A model generated the notes under the pieces. That model did no database searches, had not been told where the DNA came from, and worked only from the letters and a program-made list of their open reading frames with translations. A program made the position numbers and the translations under genes. Positions 1,870-19,953 of a stretch of DNA of 20,000 nt are shown piece after piece. Location: the IMG/VR virus record IMGVR_UViG_3300036987_000183; one strand, given 5' to 3'. The DNA comes from an uncultured virus (IMG/VR IMGVR_UViG_3300036987_000183). Its lineage: Duplodnaviria; Heunggongvirae; Uroviricota; Caudoviricetes. Position 1 is the first letter of the stretch, and each line of letters starts with the position of its first letter.

Positions 1870-2265
1870 ATGGACAACAAACTCAAAACACTCACCTTCC
1901 CCCAGACCAGAAACGCATTACTGCTTTACGAAGCAGTCGCCATTGCACTCGAAGACGCAGGGTTCATGGATGACAACAAGAAGATCAACAAGGCCATCGA
2001 GGCCCTGACGCCTAAGGACGATGTTACCAAGGTCCTGAAGCAGCTTCAGGGGTATGGCTACAGAGACTATCTCGTGGAAAAGGAAGCAGGCCGAGCCGTG
2101 GACTCTGCCGAGGCGAAAGCCGCTCACATCAAAGATTACGTCTCTGCCAGGTTCAAGAAGCACATGTCCAACCCGAAAACAGGTGTTAAGGCAACCAAGA
2201 TGTATAACGATGCTTACCCTTCCGTCGTAGCTGAAAACCCTTCTGATGACACTCCAACGGCATAA
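1870..2265 (+). CDS. Hypothetical protein (131 aa, helical)
   Basis: TAAGGAG RBS before ATG 1870 and protein-like composition. No family recognised. Confidence 0.8.
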   Translation: MDNKLKTLTFPQTRNALLLYEAVAIALEDAGFMDDNKKINKAIEALTPKDDVTKVLKQLQGYGYRDYLVEKEAGRAVDSAEAKAAHIKDYVSARFKKHMSNPKTGVKATKMYNDAYPSVVAENPSDDTPTA

Positions 2266-2350: not shown

Positions 2351-2685
2351 GTGAGAGAACTATTACCAAATACTTTGGCGAGCGTAGCAACGATGCTCTG
2401 ATCATTCATAGAGATGGCAAGGACTGGGTATCGTCCAGAAGCCTTTGTGACCTCATGGGAGTGGTTGATGAGTATTATTTGGTATTCGACCAAAGAACGT
2501 GGCCTGAGGTGAACCTTACCGAGGAGGGCAAGTGTAAGTTCACTGCTGAGGGAGCACATCTACCCTGTCCAATTTGGTTCGTTTCGGAGACTGGCTTCTG
2601 GAAGATAGTTGCAAAGTCAAACTCTTCCTGGCCAGCGAGGTTCCGTGCATCATTCCTGCCGACAGTATTCGAAGGTGGACTTTAA
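2351..2685 (+). pseudogene. Bro-N domain protein, frameshifted just after the start codon
   Basis: Frame 1 is open from 2350 to 2685 and reads RTITKYFGE..ALIIHRDGKDWVSSRSLCDLMG...IWFVSETGFWKIVAKSNSSWPARFRASFLPTV, matching the Bro-N pattern (dGepWf..kDvc..LG; isEsGly.li..S.kp.A..F). The RBS AAGGAG (2339-2344) and GTG (2351) are in frame 2, offset within GTGAGAGA. Confidence 0.65.
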
Positions 2686-2763: not shown

Positions 2764-4437
2764 ATGAAACCAAAATACTCAGAATATGACAATTACAGAT
2801 GGATCAATTGTAACCGATGGAGTACCGCTAAGGAGGTGGAGGCTTTAGTTGAATATCTGGTACAGGGGATTGCTTCAAGGAAGGGGCATGGCTACCGGAT
2901 CAATATGACCGCCCTGGTGTTGGACCTCTACCAATCATATTTGTGCGACCCAGAACAGTATCTGGCCTATAGTCGGCGTGAAGTTAGTTATCTTAATGTC
3001 GGCAGTGACCACCCCTATATAAAGAATCACAACATCAAATATCAGTACTTATTGAAGTGCGTCGATTACCTCTATGGTGATGGTTTGATTGAGAATCATG
3101 AAGGTGGCTATTTCCGCGATGATAAATCGAATAAGATTATCTCTTTTGCCAGTAGGATAAGACCGCTTAAAAGTCTTATGTCTGTGGTTGAGGAGTATGG
3201 GGTCACTCCTGAGATGATAGACGACTTTGCGCCACTGGATGTAATAATACTTAGGGGCAAAGAGGACGAAAAAACTGGTATAAAACCTGAGAAGAGGTAC
3301 CCCAGGAACAAAGTTACGACCAGGATGGTGACGCTGATACGCCAGTACAACTCATTGCTTGAACGGTCTCAGATTGATGTTGACATTGAATGTCTAACGG
3401 ATAAAGACCGTGATGAGCTGGTTAAGAAGCTGGCAGATATTGACGGTCTTAAGCGCATTGTTCTGCGTTTGTCAAACAAATCAGTTTATCGGGTATTCAA
3501 CAATGGCAGTATGGAACAAGGTGGCCGGTACTATAAGGCTTGGTGGATTAGTGCGCCTAGCACAATCAGAAAGTATATTACCATCCAGGGTGATCCTACT
3601 GTAGAGCTGGACTTCTCAGCCATGCACGTCCATTTGCTTTATGCGGTCAAAGGTGTCAACTATGCTGATAAAAAGGAAGATGCCTATACCTTAGCTTCAG
3701 GAGCGCACACTCTTGCAAATCCAAAAGATGATCGGGCCTTAAACAAGCTCATACTCTTGACAGCATTCAACGCTAAGTCGTCAGAGTCAGCAGCTTCAGC
3801 CGTTTATGATGATCTAAGGACAGAAGGCAAGCTATATCGGTACAGCATTCAAAACCATGATCGTATCAATGCCAAGCTCTCACTGTTGAAACAAAAGCAC
3901 CCTGTCATATCTGATATGATAGCTGATGACTACGGCCTAAAGCTCCAATACTATGATTCTAATGTGATCGAGAGGGTGATTGATCATTTTACCGCTATAG
4001 GAATCCCGGTGCTAACCGTTCATGATTCAGTTATATGTCAGGCTCAACATGAAGAGCTAGTTAGAAATGTGATGGTCCGATACTTCTATCAGGTAGTCGA
4101 AAATCTCTTAGCTCTCAGCATTAGACCAACACCTTTGTACTCAAGAGCAGGATTCATCCTAAGTCATCTAAATAGCATCAGGTCATATAGGACCGGAAGC
4201 ATAAGGCTTCCGTTAGCGTCTAAGCTCAATATTGTGAATCCTTCAAGATATCATGGACGTATAACTGATACTATAGCTAACAGTTTGATCGTTAAGAGTA
4301 CAGGTAGAGCCAATATTTGCTCTAAGAAGTGTAGTCATCATGCTAGACAAGAGCATAAACTAAAGTATATACCGAGCATAAAACTAGAGCTACAGGAGCT
4401 AACAGAAGCAGGAATCAGCATACTAAGGATTAAATGA
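2764..4437 (+). CDS. Divergent family-A DNA polymerase / T7-like RNA polymerase superfamily protein (palm-fingers core)
   Basis: Ordered motifs: GGRYY (cf. T7 RNAP DWRGRVY, PolA TGRL), motif A VELDFSAMH, DAY, motif B R..NK..L.AFNA, LQYYDS, motif C LTVHDS. No exonuclease motifs recognised. Start placed at ATG 2764 after GGAG. Confidence 0.75.
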   Translation: MKPKYSEYDNYRWINCNRWSTAKEVEALVEYLVQGIASRKGHGYRINMTALVLDLYQSYLCDPEQYLAYSRREVSYLNVGSDHPYIKNHNIKYQYLLKCVDYLYGDGLIENHEGGYFRDDKSNKIISFASRIRPLKSLMSVVEEYGVTPEMIDDFAPLDVIILRGKEDEKTGIKPEKRYPRNKVTTRMVTLIRQYNSLLERSQIDVDIECLTDKDRDELVKKLADIDGLKRIVLRLSNKSVYRVFNNGSMEQGGRYYKAWWISAPSTIRKYITIQGDPTVELDFSAMHVHLLYAVKGVNYADKKEDAYTLASGAHTLANPKDDRALNKLILLTAFNAKSSESAASAVYDDLRTEGKLYRYSIQNHDRINAKLSLLKQKHPVISDMIADDYGLKLQYYDSNVIERVIDHFTAIGIPVLTVHDSVICQAQHEELVRNVMVRYFYQVVENLLALSIRPTPLYSRAGFILSHLNSIRSYRTGSIRLPLASKLNIVNPSRYHGRITDTIANSLIVKSTGRANICSKKCSHHARQEHKLKYIPSIKLELQELTEAGISILRIK

Positions 4438-4446
4438 GCTCTAGAG

Positions 4447-4466
4447 GAGTAAGGCAGGCCTTACTC
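4447..4466. repeat. Perfect hairpin GAGTAAGG-cagg-CCTTACTC after the polymerase stop codon
   Basis: Read directly. It has no U-tract, so it is not a classic intrinsic terminator. Confidence 0.7.
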
Positions 4467-5208
4467 TGAACTATAGAGCTATATATACGATGATAATACA
4501 AGAGAGCAATCTACTGGATAATATAGAACTAGACACTAAGTCACCCCCCCCTCTCTCTATAACTAGCGGAGATTCGCGCTAAACCACCGAATTTAAACGG
4601 AAAGCGACTAAACTCTGTTTTGGTTCGAGAGTCGCCGCCGGTTCGCGCCGGGCCGGTTCATCCCGCGCAAGAATAGAACCTGCTAGCCGGTGTTTACTTG
4701 AAGGTGGTAGTTCTAGTAGGTCGAGCAGTAAAGTCTGACTGTAAGCCTGATCTGAGCGCCTGACTAACGGAATTAAGGGTGAAAAGGTCCTGTCATTTCA
4801 AAAAAGACTTAACCTCTATATACTAAGTCTGAGCTAGATTTAAATTGAACGTCTAGTGTCACCACTCTCACCGAAATAATAGCAATCCATTCCGACCTAT
4901 CCCCGACCCCGCTTTGATTCCGAGACCATCCCTACTTAGACCAGGAGCAACCATGTCATTGCGGCAATCATGGATCGTGAAGAGTTTTTTGAAAAGACTT
5001 GGTTGGAAGGTAATGCGGTAATGCTCAGTTTTCTTCCTGTAAATAGCATTTCATGACCAGTTGCTAGATAAACCATTGTATATTATGGTGTTAGATGATT
5101 TCAGCCCAGGACCTGGGGGGAAGTGCACTTGCCACCAAAGAAAGTAACTCTACCATATGGTAAATAACATCTAATCATTTCTGTCAACAGTCAAAAACCT
5201 GCTAGATA

Positions 5209-5553
5209 TCATTTCACTCGCTTATTCACATTCCCTACCAGCTTCAAGATGCATCCCCGAAGCTCACCATTCTTGATTCTTCTATACGCCTGTAGTAGCT
5301 GATCCTCTTCACCTGTGAGTCTGACAGACTGGATAGGTGCCGTAGTAAAGAAATCTGATACCGATACCTTAAGAGCATTTGCTATCTGCTGGAACTTAAG
5401 GATATTAAGCGTAGTCTGACCATTCTCGTATTTCTGTATCTGCTGAAAAGTAACACCTACCATCTCAGCAAGCTTCTCTTGAGAAAGACCGGCTTGCTGC
5501 CTTAACAGCTTGATCTTCATACCCAAATCTATAGAGCTGACCATATCACCCAT
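5209..5553 (-). CDS. XRE/Cro-C1 family helix-turn-helix transcriptional regulator
   Basis: LGMKIKLLRQQAGLSQEKLAEMVGVTFQQIQKYENG is a canonical HTH_3 motif. Confidence 0.95.
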   Translation of the reverse strand: MGDMVSSIDLGMKIKLLRQQAGLSQEKLAEMVGVTFQQIQKYENGQTTLNILKFQQIANALKVSVSDFFTTAPIQSVRLTGEEDQLLQAYRRIKNGELRGCILKLVGNVNKRVK

Positions 5554-5966: not shown

Positions 5967-6000
5967 TGTGTCCTAAAATCAATCAAATGTGGAGGAGAGC

Positions 6001-6876
6001 ATGGCTTTAATATTATGTGGCGAGTGTGGCAAAACCATATCTGACAAAGCACATTCATGTCCTGGATGTGGTTACCCATTGCAACCGTCAGATGCAAATC
6101 GAACCATGCAAATCGATTTAAAGACTTTTAGCAAGGAACAATTATGGGCCAAAGCGTACAATATGCAGTACAAATACAAAGACAAAAAGGCTGATATCCC
6201 AACCGCTATTGAAATATATAATTATATCATTGAACATTTTAATGGTAGTAAAGAATCTGATAATGCGAAAGTTCAGTTAAATATATTAACAACACAATCC
6301 CCAAGAACACAGACTGTGGCTAGTGATAGTGCACCTGAAATCAGCAAATCTATAGATATTCAAAAAAACAACCAAAGCCTCAAAGAATATTACAAAATAC
6401 TCGGTCTTGAAGAAAGTGCAAGCATTGAAGAAGTAACGTCTGCATATAATGAATTATCAGACAAGTGGAATCCCATAAAATATGAAGTCCATGAACGGAG
6501 CATGTTATCCTTTGCCGAGCATGAGTTTAAGGAAATTCATGATGCATATAATAGAATAAACCAACAGCTAACAGGAGACTATCAAGGAAGTAATATTGTA
6601 GAAGATGAAGTAGATAACAATGATAGTAAAAGCAGTAGCCCTATATTTGCATTAGTGTCAGTAGTAACAGCAATATTTGCAATAATTATTTTGTATCAAT
6701 TATTTTATGGAGGCCATGGCGGCCTAGGATCACAATATTATAAAGGGAATATTGATGCTTTTGTTAATGACAATGTCGAAAGGGTAAACTCGATCTCAAC
6801 TGTTATTAAAATATTTGCAGTTCTTTTCGGAATGTGGTTTGTAATGTTAATTTCAAGAATTGTCTGTAAGAAATAA
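6001..6876 (+). CDS. Zinc-ribbon + degenerate J (DnaJ-like) domain membrane protein
   Basis: N-terminal CxxC..CxxC (CGECGKTISDKAHSCPGCG). YYKILGL..SAS.EEV..AY..L..KWNP...FKEIHDAY is J-domain-like. Two C-terminal TM segments. GGAGGAG RBS before ATG 6001. Confidence 0.85.
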   Translation: MALILCGECGKTISDKAHSCPGCGYPLQPSDANRTMQIDLKTFSKEQLWAKAYNMQYKYKDKKADIPTAIEIYNYIIEHFNGSKESDNAKVQLNILTTQSPRTQTVASDSAPEISKSIDIQKNNQSLKEYYKILGLEESASIEEVTSAYNELSDKWNPIKYEVHERSMLSFAEHEFKEIHDAYNRINQQLTGDYQGSNIVEDEVDNNDSKSSSPIFALVSVVTAIFAIIILYQLFYGGHGGLGSQYYKGNIDAFVNDNVERVNSISTVIKIFAVLFGMWFVMLISRIVCKK

Positions 6877-8108: not shown

Positions 8109-8323
8109 AGCCAGACTCTCAATAGTCTGGCTTTATCAATTTGAAAGGAGGTGAATTAGTAGAACTGTAATAACCCTTCCCATCAATCTAATCCGTAACA
8201 TCGATCTACCATCGACAATCCAAGCACCACAACCTAGCAGTATATCCGTAAAGGGATATCTGCGTCTTGTAACCTACGTTACAAAAAACTGAAAAATATA
8301 TGACCATCAAGGTCTTTATCTAA
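8109..8323 (+). repeat. Diverged relic of the ardC upstream region and first codons
   Basis: Same element order as 18308-18590: hairpin with TCAAT loop, GAAAGGAGGT, G-poor tract, 39-bp motif (8239-8277 vs 18507-18546), A-run, then ATG ACC ATC AAG GTC TTT (MTIKVF vs ArdC MAINVY). Confidence 0.7.
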
Positions 8324-8486: not shown

Positions 8487-9161
8487 ATGACAATTCTTGT
8501 GGTAGAAGACGATAAAAAAATAGCAAATTTTATAAAGCGTGGCCTTGAGGCAGAGGAATATAAGGTTGAAGTTGTTCATAATGGCGAGAAAGGTCTAGAA
8601 TTAGCTCTGGAGCGGTCATATGGTCTAATTATACTCGATGTAATGTTAACAAAAAAAGATGGCCTCACCCTGCTAAGGGAGCTAAGGGAAAAAAGGTACT
8701 TTACTCCTGTGTTGATTCTGTCGGGGAAGACTATGAAGGAAGATAAAGTCGCAGGACTTGATGCTGGGGCAGATGATTATATGACTAAACCATTTGCCTT
8801 TTCTGAGCTAATAGCACGCGTCAAGGCTCTTCAGCGTAGGACGGAACACGAAAGAGGTGCTAAAATACATTTCTCAGATCTCTGTCTCGATCCTGTTACT
8901 CATCAAGTATGGTATAAAGAAAAAGAGCTTGAGCTTGCCGCAAGGGAGTACGAACTTCTTGAATACTTCATGCGCAACCCAAACCAAGTTCTCACTTTGG
9001 ATATGATCTCCGATCAAATTTGGAGAGGCGAGATTAGTAAATATACAAATATCATAGCAGTATACGCCAACTATCTTAGGAAGAAACTACGTAAAGTAGA
9101 TTCAAAAGAGCTTATCCATACTGTGCGCAGTGTTGGTTATATCATGAAAGAAGTTGCTTAA
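8487..9161 (+). CDS. OmpR/PhoB-family response regulator (CusR/CzcR-like), orphan
   Basis: ILVVEDD...IILDVML...GLDAGADDYMTKPF receiver domain plus winged-helix (EYELLEYFMRNPNQVL...IHTVRSVGY). No kinase adjacent. Confidence 0.95.
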   Translation: MTILVVEDDKKIANFIKRGLEAEEYKVEVVHNGEKGLELALERSYGLIILDVMLTKKDGLTLLRELREKRYFTPVLILSGKTMKEDKVAGLDAGADDYMTKPFAFSELIARVKALQRRTEHERGAKIHFSDLCLDPVTHQVWYKEKELELAAREYELLEYFMRNPNQVLTLDMISDQIWRGEISKYTNIIAVYANYLRKKLRKVDSKELIHTVRSVGYIMKEVA

Positions 9162-9213
9162 GGAAGTACGGGTTGAAGAGCTGGACCATATTTTAAATCG
9201 AGAGGACTCCAAA

Positions 9214-9702
9214 ATGGCAACATTAATTGAATTAGCAGCATCACTAGTAGAGTCACATGCTTCCACTACTGCAATGACCACTGAAGAGCTCCTGAAGGAA
9301 ATCGAACTGGTCTACAATGCCTTGAAGAACCTTGAGGCAGGGGTAGTGGCTCCTGTTGTTACAGAAGCGAACGTACCTACCATCACGGCTAAGCAATCAA
9401 TTAAGCCAAATGAGGTAATATGCTTGATCTGCGGTAAGGGAGGTATGCAGACCCTTGCTCGTCACCTAAATACCGCCCACAATATGAAGCCAGGAGAATA
9501 TAGGAAGCAGTTTGGTATTTCTTCCAAGCAACCTTTAGTTGCCAAGAAGTTCTCAGAGTCCAGAAGGAAAACTGCCCTGGAAAAAGATCTTGCTGGAAAT
9601 CTCGCTAAGGCCAGAGAGGTAAGAATGGCAAATATAGCAGCTGCAAAAGTAGCTGGGGCAAAAAAGGCACCGCAATCTAAGAAGGCAGTTAAGAAGGATT
9701 AG
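9214..9702 (+). CDS. mucR: Ros/MucR family zinc-finger transcriptional regulator
   Basis: SIKPNEVICLICGK..QTLARHL..AH.MKP.EYRKQFG...PLVA..FSE.RR..A motif. AGAGGA RBS before ATG 9214. Lys/Ala-rich tail. Confidence 0.9.
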   Translation: MATLIELAASLVESHASTTAMTTEELLKEIELVYNALKNLEAGVVAPVVTEANVPTITAKQSIKPNEVICLICGKGGMQTLARHLNTAHNMKPGEYRKQFGISSKQPLVAKKFSESRRKTALEKDLAGNLAKAREVRMANIAAAKVAGAKKAPQSKKAVKKD

Positions 9703-9881: not shown

Positions 9882-10298
9882 TTAAAATAGCAGAAATATA
9901 AAAAATGATGTGAGAACTACGACTAAAAGACTGAAAAGTGGAGCTATTATTCCACCGATAGGACATTTTATGAGAGGTTTACCTATTGATTTTCCTATAG
10001 GTATCAATAAGATAAAGCCTGTTAAAGGGAAATACCATTCAAGTTTCCAAAGGCTTGCAGCAAATATTGATATGACTGCAAGTATAGAAACTAAAGCCAA
10101 GATTTCGTATATCATTCCACCAATACCGCTAACAAATATAAGTGGTCTATATAAAATTATAGCTTCTGGATTTGGTTTTCCTAAATATTTAACAAATTTT
10201 CCATCTTCAAATCGGATAATACCATGTCCATAATCATAATTAATGGAGGCAATGCCGTAACAAACGCAGCAGATAAAAAATATAACTTCAAGGGTCAT
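9882..10298 (-). CDS. Hypothetical integral membrane protein
   Basis: 138-aa ORF with about 4 hydrophobic segments. Confidence 0.7.
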   Translation of the reverse strand: MTLEVIFFICCVCYGIASINYDYGHGIIRFEDGKFVKYLGKPNPEAIILYRPLIFVSGIGGMIYEILALVSILAVISIFAASLWKLEWYFPLTGFILLIPIGKSIGKPLIKCPIGGIIAPLFSLLVVVLTSFFIFLLF

Positions 10299-10677
10299 AT
10301 AGATACCTAATTCATGTGACGTTGATTGTAATTATTCCATTTCAACACTAATTGCTCCATTCGAAGGGAAGTCAGTACATTTGTCATTGTTCCGCATGCC
10401 TGCGAAAAGTTGCTCTACAGGGCGGGTATTGTTAACTACTGAACATGCTACCCCGCAACCTCGATAATACTATTGGAATAAATAATTTCAAGAGTAAATA
10501 TTTATAAAGGTTTTGAGATGCTATGCTTTCTGATGTAACCAGAGATGTACGGTGTTGAGTAGGTTTACCACGGGTAATTGTGGGGCCAAGGCTGCATCCT
10601 TTGAAATATTCATTACTTTCAAGACCCCAGCATATTTGTGACCTATTCTGTCGCAACCATATTTTATCCTCCTCACC

Positions 10678-11843: not shown

Positions 11844-12821
11844 ATGACCTACGAGCAGCTTGTTGAGTTCCTTTCCTCAAAAATGAAGATGTCCCATATT
11901 TATCAGCCACTCCTTATCAGGAGCCTGGTAGATGCTGGTGGATCTGCAACCATTCGCCAATTAGCTCAATTCTTCCTTTCCCAAGACGAAAGTCAACTTC
12001 TCTACTACGAAAAACGCATCAAGGAAATGCCTCTCAAGGTTCTTTCAAAACATGGAGTAGCATCAGCAGATGGAGAGTTAGTGCATCTGAATGTTAAGAA
12101 GTTATCCTTGGAGCAGAAAGCACATATCAGAGGTCTCTGCGAACAAAAGCTCCAGGAGTTCGTCCAGAAAAGGGGTTTGGGTATTTGGGATTACAGGTTA
12201 CTGGAAACAGATCCGATACCTGACAGTATACGATATCAGGTGCTTAAGGAGTCTGGTGGAAGGTGTGCTCTGTGTGGTATTACCAAGAAGGAATCACCAA
12301 TCGACGTTGACCATATCATTCCCAGGAGCAGGGGCGGCACTCACAACAAATCAAACCTTCAAGCCTTATGCATAAAGTGCAATAGAAGCAAAGGGAATAA
12401 AGATAAAACGGACTTCAGAAATGACCTTCCTGAGGGCAAGATAGAAGATTGCATATTCTGCTCTGATGAGATCCTTGAAAGAAAAATAGCTGAAAATGGT
12501 CCTGTATTCGCCATAGAAGATAAATTTCCAGTTACCTCTAACCACCTACTCGTAATCCCCAAAAGACATACTCCAGATTACTTCTCGATGACCTCCCTTG
12601 AACGTCAATGTGCCGAAGAACTCTTGAGATACCTTAAAAACCATGTAGCAAGTCAAGATAAGGCTGTTACTGGCTTCAACATAGGTACGAATTGTGGCGA
12701 GGTTGCGGGCCAATCAGTTATGCATGCCCATGTCCACCTAATACCCAGGAGAGCTGGAGACATGGATAAACCCAAAGGTGGAGTCCGGCATGTAATTCCA
12801 AGCAAAGGTTACTACAAATGA
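11844..12821 (+). CDS. HNH endonuclease-HIT hydrolase fusion protein
   Basis: CALCG...DVDHIIPRSRGG...SNLQALCIKCNRSKGN (HNH), followed by DCIFC...DKFPVTSNHLLVIPKRH...GQSVMHAHVHLIPR (HIT HxHxH). The N-terminal helical region may bind DNA. Confidence 0.92.
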   Translation: MTYEQLVEFLSSKMKMSHIYQPLLIRSLVDAGGSATIRQLAQFFLSQDESQLLYYEKRIKEMPLKVLSKHGVASADGELVHLNVKKLSLEQKAHIRGLCEQKLQEFVQKRGLGIWDYRLLETDPIPDSIRYQVLKESGGRCALCGITKKESPIDVDHIIPRSRGGTHNKSNLQALCIKCNRSKGNKDKTDFRNDLPEGKIEDCIFCSDEILERKIAENGPVFAIEDKFPVTSNHLLVIPKRHTPDYFSMTSLERQCAEELLRYLKNHVASQDKAVTGFNIGTNCGEVAGQSVMHAHVHLIPRRAGDMDKPKGGVRHVIPSKGYYK

Positions 12822-12864
12822 GATAGAAAAGTGGATATGTTAATAGTGAAAGGTGTGATCGACT

Positions 12865-13194
12865 ATGAAATTCAGGAAAGACCTTCCAGGTTATGTTCCA
12901 CCTAAGCAGGTAGAATTGACTGTTAAGAGAAAAGACCAAAAGAAAGAAAAGTGGTCTGAGGTTGCTAATATCAACAGTAGTAATATCAGTTGCAATGTGA
13001 ATATATCATTCAATGGCAGCAAAACCGTAATATCATATAAAGCATTACGTCAATATAATAGTGTTGATGATGATGGTGATTTTAAAAATACAATATATTC
13101 AGTAGAAATAATACTAGACAAGTACATTATGTCAGATGTTATAGAACATGCTGTTAATTCTGGAATGTATACTGTCAAGTTAGCACCAAAATAA
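12865..13194 (+). CDS. Hypothetical protein
   Basis: 109-aa ORF, AAGG(TG) upstream, co-oriented within the cluster. Confidence 0.65.
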   Translation: MKFRKDLPGYVPPKQVELTVKRKDQKKEKWSEVANINSSNISCNVNISFNGSKTVISYKALRQYNSVDDDGDFKNTIYSVEIILDKYIMSDVIEHAVNSGMYTVKLAPK

Positions 13195-13285
13195 GCAAAT
13201 ATAATATAATATAATATTATAGTACAAGTAGGTGCTGAAAATTTACTAATAAGTACTGTTATTGTGGCCATATTTGGAGGTGTAG

Positions 13286-14194
13286 ATGGCAGTTCCAGAT
13301 TTCCAATCATTCTTCAAGCCCATACTTGATGTGGCAGCTGATAATGGAGAGCATTCTGTAAAAGATGCAAGAACTATTATCAAATCTGTAATGGATCTGT
13401 CTGAAGAAGACCTCCGTGATATGCTCCCTAGTGGTACGCAGTCAAAGTTTGATAACAGGATCGCGTGGGCAATTAGCTATCTCGTTCAAGCGAACGTGTT
13501 GGAAAGACCCAAAAGAGCGTTTTTCAAGATTACAGATCGTGGTCGAGAGTTGCATAATAAAAAACACGCAAGAATTGATGTCGCTATCCTCAAAGCCTAT
13601 CCTGAGTTCCTAGAGTTCCATACTTCTAAAGTAACCACACCCGTCACTCCCATAGAAATTGATACATCAGTAAGTGCCACTCCCGATGAAATCCTTCAAC
13701 AGGCTTATCAAAGCATGCGGAATGATCTAGCCAGCGAGATACTTGAGAAGATAAAGATCAACTCTCCAGGGTACTTTGAAATGTTGGTTGTTGATCTGTT
13801 GGTAGCTATGGGTTATGGAGGGTCAAGAACGGATGCAGGACAGTCACTTGGGCGGAGTGGTGATGAAGGTATAGATGGTATCATCAAAGAAGATCGTCTG
13901 GGGCTTGATGTGATTTACTTGCAGGCCAAAAGATGGGCTAGCACAGTAGGTCGTCCTGAGATCCAGAGATTTGTAGGAGCGTTACATGGCAAGCGAGCAA
14001 AAAAAGGCGTATTCATTACTACAGGCAAGTTTTCAAATGATGCCTTGGATTATGTAGCGACCATTGATCCTAAAGTTGTCCTGATAGACGGTAGGACCTT
14101 GGTGGAATATATGATTGATTTCAACCTGGGAGTCTCTATAGCAACAACATATGAAATTAAACGCCTAGATTCAGATTATTTCTCAGAGGAGTAG
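13286..14194 (+). CDS. mrr: Mrr type IV (modification-dependent) restriction endonuclease
   Basis: Mrr_N (PDFQSFFKPIL...LPSGTQSKFDNRIAWA..YL..A) plus Mrr_cat (FE.LVVDLL.AMGYGG...GDEGIDGII.ED.LGLD.IYLQAKRW...FVGAL....A.KGVFITT). GGAGG RBS. Confidence 0.97.
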   Translation: MAVPDFQSFFKPILDVAADNGEHSVKDARTIIKSVMDLSEEDLRDMLPSGTQSKFDNRIAWAISYLVQANVLERPKRAFFKITDRGRELHNKKHARIDVAILKAYPEFLEFHTSKVTTPVTPIEIDTSVSATPDEILQQAYQSMRNDLASEILEKIKINSPGYFEMLVVDLLVAMGYGGSRTDAGQSLGRSGDEGIDGIIKEDRLGLDVIYLQAKRWASTVGRPEIQRFVGALHGKRAKKGVFITTGKFSNDALDYVATIDPKVVLIDGRTLVEYMIDFNLGVSIATTYEIKRLDSDYFSEE

Positions 14195-14415
14195 TATATT
14201 GTTTTAAAGAGGGCCATGATGTTTTGGAAAAGCCCAAGGACTACAGTTTCATATTTTGGCTAAGGAGCGGCCAACAACCACCTTTATAGATAATAAATGT
14301 TGAGAAGTGATCGTACTTTAGCCGCAGTTCTGCTTACACATGAATCAGTTTAAATGCCTACGATTGGATACATATAGCGATACAGATCGAAATATTGATA
14401 TTTTTGGAGGGATAG

Positions 14416-15894
14416 ATGAATGTCAGGGAGTGGCTTCCAGAATTTAAAGTGTCAGCCGAAAGCGATACAGAGTTACTTAAGTACTTTCTTAAAACATCTT
14501 ACGTAGACGATATTCTTAACACGTCAAAATGGATGGTCCTAGGCCGCAAAGGTACTGGTAAAACAGCAATTTATGAATATATCAAAAGCGGGACAAGAGA
14601 ATCGTTAGGCGGATTTGAACCAATAGCCCTCAATTTCAAAGACTATCCTTGGCCAATTCACAAACTGTACAAGGAAGGGATGGAGGGAGAAATTACAGCT
14701 TATCAGAAAAGTTGGCATTACCTAGTTATAGTTCAAGCTATATCTAAGCTAATTGAAATACGTGAAAAGAGCTCTGAGTACTTATCAAGTGAATTGCAAG
14801 CAGCCAAAAAAATAATAAACTTTATATACGGTAGTCCGTTTCCTTCTCTAATGGAAGTTATTAAATCAAAGTTGTTTCGAATAAATAGCTTGTCTTTACC
14901 AAATTTAGCAGCAGCAGATATAAATATGTCAGCAGGAGAAATCTCATTTGATGATGTATCTGCTGATTCACAATTAAAATCGAAACTTAAAACTAATGCG
15001 TTTGTCTTGCTGCAGTACTTAGAAACAATACTCTTACAAAACATTGGCGAGACGCAAATTTTGGTTGCTTTAGACCAGTTAGACGAAAATTGGTTGCAAA
15101 ACGAAATTGAAGAATATAGTAAAATATTGATCAATCTTATAAATGTTTGTCAGCACATAAACAATGCCGAAAGATTTAAAAATCTAAAGATTATTCTTTT
15201 TCTAAGGTTAGATATCTATGAAACATTGAGGTTTAATGACAAAAACAAGATTTTTCAGGATAGCGCTGTCGAAATAAGGTGGGACAATGATAGTTTAAAT
15301 GAAATGTTTTTCGAAAGGGTTAAGAAATATAAGCCTGCTGAACTTCAATTAGATATGAATTTGAAAAGCAATGCTATTTTTGAAGCAAAGTTTGTAAGAC
15401 ATGGAGCCACACCATTCAAGCACATTTTAAGGAGATCATTTTATCGACCACGTGATATTGTTGTTTATATGAATAAAATTAGAGAAGCCCATAAAGGTAC
15501 TAAGAGCGGATTGTATTCATCCAAGGATTTATATAATGCCGAAAAAGATGTGTCAAAAAGTTTGTACAGTGAACTTATTGATGAATGGTCAAATCAAAAG
15601 CCTGATTTAGATACAATTCTTTCTGTATTACAGAACATCGGCACACAAACCTTCAAATATGAAGACTTTGTTGAGAAATATAGTAATTCCAACTCAGATT
15701 GTGATAAGGCTGATATCAATGATGCCCTTTTATTCTTGTTCCTTAATTCTGTTATTGGTCAAAAAATTACTGCCAACTGGGAATATTTTTGCACTAATCC
15801 GTACATGCAAATAGACAATGCTAAGCAGTTTCATGTTAATTCTGGCCTTAAAGACAGGCTCATGCTAACAGAGAGCAGATCTTCACGAGCTTAA
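14416..15894 (+). CDS. P-loop ATPase (Sll1717-like family)
   Basis: Walker A GRKGTGKT, Walker B VALDQLDE, FLR.DIY, RPRD motif, N-terminal AE.D..L..YF. GGAGG RBS. Confidence 0.85.
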   Translation: MNVREWLPEFKVSAESDTELLKYFLKTSYVDDILNTSKWMVLGRKGTGKTAIYEYIKSGTRESLGGFEPIALNFKDYPWPIHKLYKEGMEGEITAYQKSWHYLVIVQAISKLIEIREKSSEYLSSELQAAKKIINFIYGSPFPSLMEVIKSKLFRINSLSLPNLAAADINMSAGEISFDDVSADSQLKSKLKTNAFVLLQYLETILLQNIGETQILVALDQLDENWLQNEIEEYSKILINLINVCQHINNAERFKNLKIILFLRLDIYETLRFNDKNKIFQDSAVEIRWDNDSLNEMFFERVKKYKPAELQLDMNLKSNAIFEAKFVRHGATPFKHILRRSFYRPRDIVVYMNKIREAHKGTKSGLYSSKDLYNAEKDVSKSLYSELIDEWSNQKPDLDTILSVLQNIGTQTFKYEDFVEKYSNSNSDCDKADINDALLFLFLNSVIGQKITANWEYFCTNPYMQIDNAKQFHVNSGLKDRLMLTESRSSRA

Positions 15895-16820: not shown

Positions 16821-17004
16821 TCAAAAAAAAACTCTATATGATATCCAAAATATTCAAAACATCCGAGTACCCAGATGGTATATAGGAAAAGGGAATAGTA
16901 AATAGATGAACCCCGGTGGGGTAACGTCTTTAGCAAGGGTATGGCCTAACTGGTCGTGCCCTTTTTTATTACCATTAAGCATGTAACAATACGAAAGGAG
17001 GTAG
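16821..17004 (+). repeat. Non-coding repeat of about 185 bp, copy A (candidate promoter + short structured RNA + terminator)
   Basis: Aligns by eye with 18185-18377 along its full length. Confidence 0.9.
16935..16967 (+). terminator. Intrinsic terminator-like hairpin within repeat A
   Basis: AAGGGTATGGCC-taact-GGTCGTGCCCTT followed by a T-run. Confidence 0.75.
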
Positions 17005-18184: not shown

Positions 18185-18377
18185 TCAAAAAACCTATATG
18201 AAATCCAAAAACTTTAAATCATCCGAGTAGCCAGATGATATATAAGAAGATGGAATAGTCGAAAGATGAACCCCGGTGGGGTCTCAAAATAACATTAGCA
18301 TTTTTAGAAAGGGTATGGCCTCAATGGTCATGCCCTTTTTAGTCTCCATAATCACGTAACTAAACGAAAGGAGGTAG
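18185..18377 (+). repeat. Non-coding repeat of about 190 bp, copy B, upstream of ardC
   Basis: Aligns with 16821-17004. Confidence 0.9.
18308..18340 (+). terminator. Intrinsic terminator-like hairpin within repeat B
   Basis: AAAGGGTATGGCC-tcaat-GGTCATGCCCTTT followed by TT. Confidence 0.75.
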
Positions 18378-18571
18378 CACCATGAGCACATGACAGCACC
18401 ATCAGAATAACCTTCCTACCAGTAGAACCACATCAAAGTATCCAACCACGTAAGCACCCAAGTAACGAATCCACCGGCAAGTAACCCAACAACCCAACAG
18501 GAGACTAGTATTTCCCGTAAAGGGATACTTGCGTCTTGCATCCTACTACCCAAAAAAAGGAGGAATATCAG

Positions 18572-19471
18572 ATGGCTATCAACGTTTATGAAGTAATCAA
18601 TCACCGTATCATGGAACTATTGGAACAAGGAACAATACCTTGGAGAAAACCATGGAATGCAGAAGGTAACATGCCAAAGAACCTTGTAAGTAGGAAAGAA
18701 TATCGAGGGATCAACCTTTTTCTCTTGAATGCCATGCCCTACAGTTCGTCTTATTGGATGACCTTCAAGCAAGCTCAGGATAAGGGGGGCACTGTTCGTA
18801 AAGGAGAAAAGAGCACGATGGTAATCTTCTGGAAGTGGTTAGATCGGACGGGTGCAGTAAGTGAACCTGATGAAGCTGATGCAGCTGGTTCATGGAAAGG
18901 TAAGGTGCCGATGCTAAGGTACTACAATGTCTTCAATGTTGAGCAGTGTGATGGTATCAAAGTACCGGAATCCAACGATACCGTTAACGAATTTAGCCCT
19001 ATAGAGAGGGCAGAAGAGATAATATCCACCATGCCATGTAGACCAGATATCCGGTATGGAGGCAACAGAGCATATTATTCACCTGGACTAGATTACGTTC
19101 AGCTACCAAACAAACATACCTTCAATTCCTCAGAAGAATATTACTCCACCTGTTTCCATGAGTTAACCCATGCTTCCGGCCATATTACAAGACTTGGGAG
19201 GAAAAGTATCCTTGAGCCGTCATACTTTGGGAGCCATGAATACAGCAAAGAAGAGTTGGTAGCGGAAATGGGGTCTGCATTCCTATGTGGCTATAGTGGC
19301 ATCGAGCAGAATACGTTGGAGAATAGTGCAGCATATATTCTGGGGTGGTTGAAGGTATTGAAGAATGACAAGAAGCTACTGGTCCATGCAGGAGCTTTAG
19401 CCCAGAAAGCAGTTGATTACATCCTGAATCAGAAAGGAGGTGAAGAGAACTTAAATGATCAGGCAGCATAG
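18572..19471 (+). CDS. ardC: ArdC family anti-restriction protein (ssDNA-binding domain + zincin-like metallopeptidase)
   Basis: LEQG.IPWRKPW...P.N..S.KEYRGIN...WMTFKQA...GG.VRKGEK...YYNVFNVEQ; RAYYSP..DYVQLP...F...EEYY.T.FHELTHASGH..RL.R...Y..EELVAEMGSAFL. AGGAGG RBS before ATG 18572. Confidence 0.96.
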   Translation: MAINVYEVINHRIMELLEQGTIPWRKPWNAEGNMPKNLVSRKEYRGINLFLLNAMPYSSSYWMTFKQAQDKGGTVRKGEKSTMVIFWKWLDRTGAVSEPDEADAAGSWKGKVPMLRYYNVFNVEQCDGIKVPESNDTVNEFSPIERAEEIISTMPCRPDIRYGGNRAYYSPGLDYVQLPNKHTFNSSEEYYSTCFHELTHASGHITRLGRKSILEPSYFGSHEYSKEELVAEMGSAFLCGYSGIEQNTLENSAAYILGWLKVLKNDKKLLVHAGALAQKAVDYILNQKGGEENLNDQAA

Positions 19472-19770: not shown

Positions 19771-19953
19771 ATGAAAGAAGTAGCGACTGACGTAAAGATG
19801 ATGACTTACGAGGAAGCAGATCAAAAAGGTTTATTCAACAGGGGTCTCATACTGGACTACGAAGGTAGGACGTATCGTAAGCTTCCCTGTCAAGTAGACA
19901 GTTGTAAAGTAGAGTTTTTGACGTTCTTTGTCATGTATTCAGCAGGCGTCTGA
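19771..19953 (+). CDS. Small hypothetical protein
   Basis: GGGAGGA RBS, 60-aa ORF. Confidence 0.65.
   Translation: MKEVATDVKMMTYEEADQKGLFNRGLILDYEGRTYRKLPCQVDSCKVEFLTFFVMYSAGV

Follow-up and report, generated by a model that had tools for sequence, protein, structure and literature searches.

The polymerase gene and its predicted fold

The object of this study was a gene located at positions 2764..4437 (+ strand) of a 20,000-nucleotide DNA stretch from an uncultured virus of the Caudoviricetes (IMG/VR record IMGVR_UViG_3300036987_000183); the whole stretch is called the window below. Based on an intact open reading frame (ORF) of 557 amino acids (aa), an AlphaFold2 (AF2) model and a family-A polymerase fold, the product, P0001, was annotated as a probable TV-Pol-type polymerase. 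The frame was free of stop codons, and 39 homologues aligned from the ATG at 2764, an alternative TTG start being present at 2707. A preliminary description of this DNA had presented the protein as a compact orphan polymerase with features intermediate between those of DNA polymerase I (Pol I) and T7 RNA polymerase (T7 RNAP). The 557-aa frame and the motifs listed there, GGRYY, ELDFSAMH, DAY, RALNKLILLTAFNA, QYYD and VHDS, were all found in the sequence in that order.

No match to P0001 was obtained among the Pfam, NCBIfam or PADLOC models (5,027 of the latter), and Pfam DNA_pol_A was among the models that gave none at E ≤ 0.01. Since no Pfam family matched at this threshold, the protein had no recognisable exonuclease domain, as had been described earlier. 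The only family matches were phrog_4756, of unknown function (E 2.4e-55), and, weakly, phrog_2051, 'RNA polymerase' (E 0.008), while the ESM Atlas returned unnamed clusters only. A word-seeded search yielded 116 homologues, 40 of which were used to build an alignment and profile, A1. Neither the single P0001 sequence nor the A1 profile matched a PDB sequence at E ≤ 10.

The AF2 model of P0001 built on A1 had a mean pLDDT of 84.6 and a pTM of 0.80. Comparison with the PDB by Foldseek gave 73 matches at E ≤ 0.001 (best E 6e-5), and the 47 of them that were listed were all family-A DNA polymerases. Further, model residues ~154-516 were covered by a VIA-align comparison, in which the apicoplast polymerase 5dkt (Z 13.1, root-mean-square deviation (rmsd) 4.6, 263 aligned residues), Bst Pol I (Z 12.9, rmsd 3.8, 248 aligned), the yeast mitochondrial RNAP (Z 12.8, rmsd 4.0, 283 aligned) and T7 RNAP (Z 11.6, rmsd 4.0, 285 aligned) were matched. 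The scores were nearly equal, and therefore the core of P0001 was considered to be about equally similar to the DNA and the RNA polymerases of the superfamily. A right-hand, family-A-like fold with Z values of 13.1 against 11.6-12.8 bore out the intermediate character proposed for the protein, and according to the model P0001 is genuinely related, in a minimal form, to DNA polymerase I and T7 RNA polymerase. Uncharacterised phage proteins of ~430 aa were matched best among predicted viral structures (E 2e-22).

The polymerase core (aa ~154-450; 3223..4113, + strand) was delimited from the AF2 secondary structure, the A1 columns and the VIA alignments, and comprised a two-helix thumb, an Arg hairpin, a palm and fingers. 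The thumb helices (183-201 and 213-224) were located within the stretch aligned to the thumb and palm of Pol I. The hairpin was formed by strands 242-245 and 253-257, which bore R243 and R255. In the palm, D283 was placed at the end of strand 277-284 and H420-D421 in the turn linking strands 417-419 and 422-426, which in the predicted structure is the usual palm arrangement. The fingers contained D306, Y308 and helices 320-336, 340-353 and 366-378, and R324xxxK328 started this three-helix unit.

Residue conservation was counted in 254 family proteins aligned to the A1 profile. The invariant columns of A1 were R243, F245, G254, R255, D283, Y308, R324, K328, H420, D421 and M437. Of the palm aspartates, D283 was kept in all 254 relatives and D421 in 252; the hairpin arginines R255 and R243 were kept in 254 and 253, and K328, R324 and D306 of the fingers in 253, 251 and 238, respectively. 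Judged from these alignments, the conservation of the putative catalytic residues is far in excess of chance.

In Pol I, the steric-gate Glu is found five residues past the motif-A Asp and Tyr766 belongs to motif B; the Tyr at the latter position is carried by T7 RNAP as well. The equivalence of P0001 residues to those of Pol I was set by motif spacing and the Pol I/T7 numbering. By this measure, Glu710 of the steric gate corresponded to His288 (240 of 254 relatives), Phe762 to Leu332 (181 of 254) and Tyr766 to Asn336 (247 of 254), and motif C was HDS (Ser422 in 247 of 254) instead of HDE. None of the Pol I residues selecting the sugar and the base (Glu, Phe, Tyr) was present at the motif-equivalent positions of P0001. 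Asn336 was situated eight residues past the motif-B Lys, in agreement with the Tyr replacement noticed before. At the level of aligned sequences, His288, Asn336 and the HDS of motif C appear to form an active-site trio that is conserved in the P0001 family (240-247 of 254 relatives) and differs from both Pol I and T7 RNAP.

The N-terminal accessory domain (aa 1-150; 2764..3213, + strand) was modelled separately, as residues 1-165 alone on a 42-row alignment, and was winged-helix-like with a pLDDT of 90. A comparison with 48,161 PDB representatives gave no match at Z ≥ 8. The top structural matches were weak (Z 5.2-6.8) and nearly all of them were winged-helix proteins, including ribosomal protein chains, MarR/PadR regulators, ORC winged helices and Z-alpha domains. 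Additionally, TFE/TFIIE winged helices and MarR proteins were recovered by Foldseek with E values of 0.008-0.1 (best 7.7e-3). With modest confidence, the N-terminus of P0001 is probably a winged-helix-like domain that is predicted to bind nucleic acids.

At the other end, a C-terminal extension (aa 451-557; 4114..4434, + strand) was recognised in A1 by a conserved R-x-N-x-C-x3-C motif and terminal strands. The pLDDT was 86-91 for aa 510-557, which made up the two terminal strands, and below 55 for the linker of aa 450-505. The tail was common to the long forms in A1, including those of Geomonas and the Desulfuromonadales, and the forms of 470-490 aa were without it.

The TV-Pol family and its distribution

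The TV-Pols were described by Iyer, Abhiman and Aravind (2008, Biol Direct 3:39, PMC2579912) as polymerases in which two antiparallel helices ahead of the palm form the thumb, a beta-hairpin bears an absolutely conserved Arg, the palm is RRM-like with two conserved Asp, and the fingers, inserted past the first palm strand, carry a conserved Asp together with an RxxxK motif in the opening helix of a unit of three; they are never fused to a nuclease. The thumb, the Arg hairpin, the palm Asp, the fingers Asp with RxxxK and the freedom from a nuclease were all found in P0001. Named hosts of the family include Geobacter bemidjiensis, many Rhodobacterales and the Microcystis phage Ma-LMM01 (PMC2579912). 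A subset with an extra N-terminal domain adjoins a resolvase, a lambda-type integrase or a transposase and sits in regions rich in mobile elements and restriction-modification (R-M) operons, the co-location with the latter being put down to insertion at hot spots that mobile elements share with such operons. An element of Brucella combines a TV-Pol with a resolvase and a Bro-N/KilA-C protein. The same paper counted CcPol of SCCmec among the TV-Pols, noted that T7-like RNAPs and Pol I share elements that TV-Pols lack, and predicted a role as primase-polymerases (PMC2579912).

By its core features, context and host range, P0001 probably belongs to this family, the minimal, nuclease-free branch of the superfamily of family-A polymerases and T7-like RNAPs, whose carriers are phages and integrating mobile elements; the assignment was set by the published description (features, context and hosts). 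Hence, the suggestion that the locus represents an undescribed system could not be retained, as the same core features, contexts and hosts were described in 2008. Against the condition set in the preliminary description, a place in a characterised subfamily of ordinary context, its proposal was half refuted: the family has been described, but the branch of P0001 has never been assayed. According to Bebel et al. (2020, eLife, PMC7581432), no TV-Pol besides CcPol had been characterised as of 2020, and among the titles and abstracts listed by full-text searches of the open literature, subscription journals excluded, none reported an assay of a TV-Pol with an N-terminal domain. New in the present analysis are the winged-helix N-terminus predicted here, the C-terminal CxxxC tail of the clade and the His/Leu/Asn residues. 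A further N-terminal piece of 100-215 aa, mutually related among its bearers and missing from P0001, was carried by 13 listed relatives (P0128, P0130, P0152 and ten others; 613-703 aa, plus P0247 with 542 aa) and was also found at the loci L021, L026 and L051. This piece may be the 'TV-PolN' of the 2008 paper.

When the A1 profile was run against 1.84 billion representative proteins, 11,652 clusters were matched at E ≤ 0.001, 9,066 at E ≤ 1e-10 and 5,404 at E ≤ 1e-30; together with the 116 word-search homologues, these numbers show that the polymerase is not an 'orphan'. The closest named homologues came from Geomonas, Geobacter and the Desulfuromonadales (40-58% identity), and distant ones from the Rhodobacteraceae (~25% identity), both by the word-seeded search. 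When each species was represented by a single genome, a relative was encoded at 318 of 328 pattern matches, and the best 80 of the 318 belonged chiefly to Alphaproteobacteria, with some from the Geobacter group. Relatives were present in 121 of 50,697 phage records, all at less than 60% identity and all annotated as hypothetical, and in two of 72,556 plasmid records, one of which was a 2.2-Mb replicon. The occurrence was patchy, in that carriers made up 10 of the 81 genomes from the family of genome G001 and 13 of the 121 from that of G002, with 1-4 matches per genome, some of them broken by stops or fragmented. Fused forms of 1,079-3,080 aa were not found, which is weak evidence. In one Geobacter-group genome (G075:C1), two inverted relatives at 1764958-1766262 and 1784221-1785525, ~18 kb apart, had identical scores and one in-frame TGA each.

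The genomic setting was surveyed by clustering 1,205 ORFs from 81 sources (80 loci and the window). Within ~8 kb of the polymerase, 52 of the sources contained a member of a tyrosine integrase cluster and nine a resolvase. The 140 nearest neighbours, taken from 75 loci, included 14 integrases or resolvases; the other 126 were heterogeneous and mostly without a Pfam family, the named ones including Mrr, type ISP, EcoEI-R and Schlafen/AlbA proteins. Helicase-domain matches among the nearest neighbours were located in restriction-type proteins. Recombinases were the only widely recurring neighbours of the polymerase, and this agreed with the integrase and resolvase contexts described in 2008. The tie to mobile DNA proposed from the window was supported by these counts and by integrases on two metagenome contigs, L083 and L084. 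At 36 viral loci, a UvsW-type helicase was found beside the gene in three cases and the replication initiator RPA in one.

Genes and other features around the polymerase

Close relatives of the polymerase were borne by three metagenome contigs. One of them, L082, matched the window at 99.98% identity across 4,855 bases and extended 4,057 bases further upstream. The second, L083 (74% identity), carried an integrase fragment ~4 kb upstream of the polymerase, at the contig end, and the third, L084 (60% identity), a full integrase ~3.1 kb upstream, as well as HNH, ParB, UvrD-nuclease and methylase genes downstream. In the close relatives, the gene order was conserved: an unknown protein of 125-150 aa, a Bro-N-like protein of 103 aa and the polymerase.

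The first member of this module was a gene for a 131-aa protein of unknown function at 1870..2265 (+ strand), defined by positional homologues in L001, L083 and L084. It was 46% identical to its counterpart in L001, a Geomonas strain, and matched no Pfam or PADLOC model. A complex prediction for this protein and the polymerase (score 0.02, mark 0.32) was neutral on binding. Because a hidden Markov model (HMM) of the extra N-terminal piece found three fused polymerase ORFs only and no stand-alone gene among the neighbouring ORFs, the 131-aa gene was not equated with that piece.

The second member was a small Bro-N-like gene at 2351..2685 (+ strand), which appeared to be frameshifted when compared with the 103-aa homologues of L083 and L084. 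The homologues started with MRE. In the window, the GTG at 2351 opened MRELL, but that frame stopped after 16 codons at 2399-2401, and the conserved frame, open from 2350, had its first start codon at ATG 2455. The change of frame was therefore located ~5-8 codons into the gene, and the same ORFs were present in L082 (6408-6742). The gene could be a pseudogene, be recoded or start internally at ATG 2455. Of the earlier claim of a Bro-N neighbour, the family name stood as the best Pfam match, whereas the match itself was below threshold (Bro-N E 0.019-0.059) and the gene apparently not intact. Two further ORFs were considered and set aside: a 213-aa minus-strand ORF at 1918-2559 is probably not real, as it matched only the antisense of other genes, and the 408-aa gene at 493-1719 was not counted with the module, as it was not conserved in position, showed no detectable relation to the gene at this place in L084 (E 0.73) and was partially matched only in L004.

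Directly past the stop codon, the inverted repeats I5 and I6 formed a stem-loop at 4438..4480 (+ strand), a possible terminator without a T-run. It was the sole helix kept in both the minimum free energy and the centroid folds, and the terminator scan did not call it. The region 4438-5208 contained no Rfam family at threshold and no tRNA. A gene for an XRE-type helix-turn-helix (HTH) regulator (5209..5553, - strand; Pfam HTH_3, E 1.9e-17) was convergent with the polymerase gene; none of the ORFs at the 80 genome loci clustered with it, and its membership in the module is uncertain.

No helicase, primase or virion gene family was detected among the 19 window ORFs that were scanned, which was in line with the earlier observation that such genes are not adjacent to the polymerase. 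An ArdC-type antirestriction gene was found at 18536..19471 (+ strand; Pfam ArdcN and MPTase-PolyVal) and clustered with ORFs ~4.5 kb (L003) and ~6.2 kb (L004) downstream of their polymerases. ParB was found in L001 and L084. A repeat of ~180 nt was present at 16827-17004 and 18187-18377 (78-84% identity); each copy contained a hairpin with a T-run and ended in AAGGAGGTAG, and the second copy was followed by a 3-codon mini-ORF ~150 nt before ArdC. The repeats were tried as a single-strand promoter or initiation site and rejected, being no more structured than shuffled sequences (z -0.62 and +0.86).

A 54-nt element (CCGTAAAGGGATA..TGCGTCTTG..) was observed at 8246-8299 and 18515-18568 with 78% identity, just upstream of a response-regulator gene (8487) and of ArdC (18536), and may be a shared control site. 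At 8487-9702, the gene of this OmpR-type response regulator overlapped a Ros/MucR regulator gene by 8 nt; at an unrelated locus, L038, a Ros/MucR gene (10174-10662) was located just downstream of the polymerase. The protein encoded at 5989-6876 had an N-terminal zinc ribbon, a central DnaJ (J) domain and no other recognisable part. A defence-type cluster was situated at 11844-15894 and consisted of an HNH-HIT fusion (11844-12821), a small ORF (12865-13194), a type IV Mrr (13286-14194; PADLOC mREase_IV, E 4.7e-87) and a Sll1717-family P-loop ATPase (14416-15894). Contigs from four metagenome runs branched at 19874-19916 and the summed depth tripled in the last bin; therefore the right end of the window enters repeated or shared sequence. 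Among the assembled contigs aligned to the window, no excision joint or circle junction was seen.

Proposed role of P0001 and comparison with known systems

Taking these results together, we proposed that P0001 is a TV-Pol primase-polymerase by which an integrative element has its DNA synthesis started, a role which was considered fairly probable. The N-terminal winged-helix-like domain would hold the DNA of the element and grip the template, and the polymerase core would start a chain de novo and extend it a short way. In the active site, D283 and D421 would bind two metals, R324 and K328 would contact the incoming nucleotide, and R243 and R255 would face the template side. The host replisome would take over after the initial synthesis. 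As an outcome, the element might copy itself post-excision or have its second strand synthesised after single-stranded entry into a cell. Because of the CcPol precedent and the differing residues of the family, we committed ourselves to a primase-polymerase, the product of which may be DNA or RNA. CcPol uses deoxynucleotides (dNTPs) to extend primers and begins DNA chains de novo once the small protein MP is bound to it (PMC7581432, PMC10061031); E710 and F762 of Pol I are retained in this enzyme (PMC7581432).

A role in replication is supported by the link to recombinases, the patchy occurrence, ArdC or ParB in related loci and the UvsW or RPA neighbours at four of the 36 viral loci. Several observations weigh against it. 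No replicative helicase or primase family was found among the 140 nearest neighbours (75 loci, 126 scanned against Pfam), the 19 scanned ORFs of the window contained no integrase, resolvase or transposase family, the five ORFs in the 4 kb further upstream (L082) matched no recombinase family, and the ends of the element were not located. Downstream of the gene, 4438-5208 was without origin-like repeats and contained short two-copy repeats only and, apart from one 8-nt doublet, no tandem array, and its single-strand folding was no better than that of shuffled sequences (z -0.57 and -0.29). Plasmid records with a relative were few, as given above. With regard to membership in the TV-Pols, the profile search of phage Ma-LMM01 was empty, although an empty result is uninformative there. 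Additionally, the biochemistry of CcPol may not transfer to P0001, because the family of the latter carries His288, Leu332, Asn336 and HDS.

Other roles were weighed against the same data. If P0001 were a dedicated single-subunit RNAP, a miniature of the T7 type transcribing the genes of the element, its equally good matches to the mitochondrial RNAP (Z 12.8), T7 RNAP (Z 11.6) and Pol I would be expected, and the HDS of motif C (as in T7 RNAP), the lack of a Glu at the steric gate, the weak match to phrog_2051 'RNA polymerase' (E 0.008) and a 58%-identical UniRef homologue named 'DNA-directed RNA polymerase' would fit as well. However, the motif-B Tyr, by which T7 RNAP selects nucleoside triphosphates (NTPs), is replaced by Asn, and a bulky His288 stands where T7 keeps a small residue. 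The N-terminus resembles a plain winged helix and gave no match to the promoter-binding domain of T7 RNAP. No repeated promoter-like element was found before the module genes, the repeats being located elsewhere. As T7-like RNAPs also share elements of Pol I that TV-Pols lack (PMC2579912), such a transcriptase was judged unlikely.

A component of anti-phage defence or counter-defence, for example one making a nucleic-acid product on infection, was regarded as quite unlikely. The possibility was raised for PolA-SSB primases by Rice 2023 (PMC10061031), and the type IV Mrr, the HNH-HIT fusion and the Sll1717 P-loop ATPase of the window, like the Mrr, type ISP, EcoEI-R and Schlafen/AlbA neighbours elsewhere, would agree with it. 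Yet none of the 5,027 PADLOC models matched P0001, no defence gene was a conserved partner among the heterogeneous neighbours, recombinases being the only ones to recur widely, and the 2008 paper ascribes the co-location to hot-spot insertion (PMC2579912). A role as replicase of an autonomous plasmid, of which the window would be a fragment, is very improbable for P0001. ArdC in the window, ParB in L001 and L084 and the length of the longest recorded sequence carrying the protein (~20.4 kb) are compatible with a plasmid, but only the two plasmid records, including the 2.2-Mb replicon, had a relative, terminal overlaps of 15-200 nt were present in none of 17 short whole contigs, and relatives were found in long chromosomal contigs beside integrases. 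A frameshifted Bro-N-like neighbour and the stops or truncation of several relatives in other genomes could point to an inactive or decaying passenger gene; with the 557-aa frame intact, all catalytic residues kept and an independent contig 99.98% identical over 4,855 bases, a dead gene was hardly credible.

With a primase-polymerase of an integrative element as the preferred reading, a bolder proposal may be added, which is conceivable although doubtful. The TV-Pol branch of P0001 might be a self-sufficient, single-chain family-A primase, in which the fused winged helix and, in this clade, the CxxxC tail grip the template, a job that CcPol leaves to the separate protein MP, and the His/Asn/HDS residues confer a sugar selectivity unlike that of Pol I or T7 RNAP, giving, for example, RNA or mixed primers. 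If true, this branch would stand, as a surviving form, midway between the DNA and the RNA polymerases of the superfamily. The TV-Pol family of more than 11,000 clusters has no Pfam model and one assayed, atypical member, and integrative elements of the Geobacter group and of Alphaproteobacteria commonly carry the branch discussed here. The conserved signature may bear on the choice between NTPs and dNTPs, and the activity of such enzymes on the prediction made in 2008 and on the divergence of DNA and RNA polymerase activities in the superfamily. For annotation, a name and a domain map are gained for thousands of 'hypothetical proteins'.

Compared with known systems, P0001 shares with the TV-Pols of 2008 a minimal nuclease-free family-A core and, together with its relatives, a Bro-N-type neighbour, hosts and frequent R-M-rich islands, the integrase or resolvase neighbours being those of the relatives. 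An all-helical TV-PolN was predicted in that paper, whereas the model of the P0001 N-terminus is a winged helix that includes a beta wing, and the two domains may differ; the C-terminal CxxxC tail is absent from the main text of the paper, and P0001 has no fused or adjacent D5-type helicase. CcPol-MP of SCCmec (Bebel et al. 2020, Rice 2023) is, like P0001, a nuclease-free family-A polymerase on an integrating element, and CcPol is the sole TV-Pol known to have been assayed. It depends on a separate partner protein with an OB fold and on a helicase encoded next to it, whereas P0001 has its own N-terminal domain and no helicase nearby; E710 and F762 are kept in CcPol, unlike His288 and Leu332 at the motif-equivalent positions of P0001. 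No OB-fold partner of P0001 was identified among the small neighbouring genes, which were without a family match and for which no fold models were built.

Pol I/Klenow, KlenTaq and the apicoplast polymerase were the best structural matches (Z 12-13, ~250 residues) and have the same A-B-C order of motifs. They differ from P0001 in an identity of only 12-16%, in the exonuclease domain that P0001 lacks, and in the replacement of the motif-B Tyr by Asn, of the steric-gate Glu by His and of HDE by HDS. T7-like and mitochondrial RNAPs, which also prime DNA replication, scored similarly (Z 11.6-12.8) and resemble P0001 in the GR-aromatic motif of the hairpin and in the HDS of motif C. P0001 is ~300-400 residues shorter, the motif-B Tyr is missing, and the promoter-binding N-terminus of the T7-like enzymes had no match in P0001 except in long alignments of low quality (rmsd 7.3-7.8). 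The AEP prim-pols (pRN1 ORF904) and piPolB, a family B enzyme, belong to catalytic families unrelated to P0001 (AEP and family B), and the analogy, drawn from the literature, is a functional one only: in each case, a single enzyme of a mobile element is proposed both to start and to extend chains.

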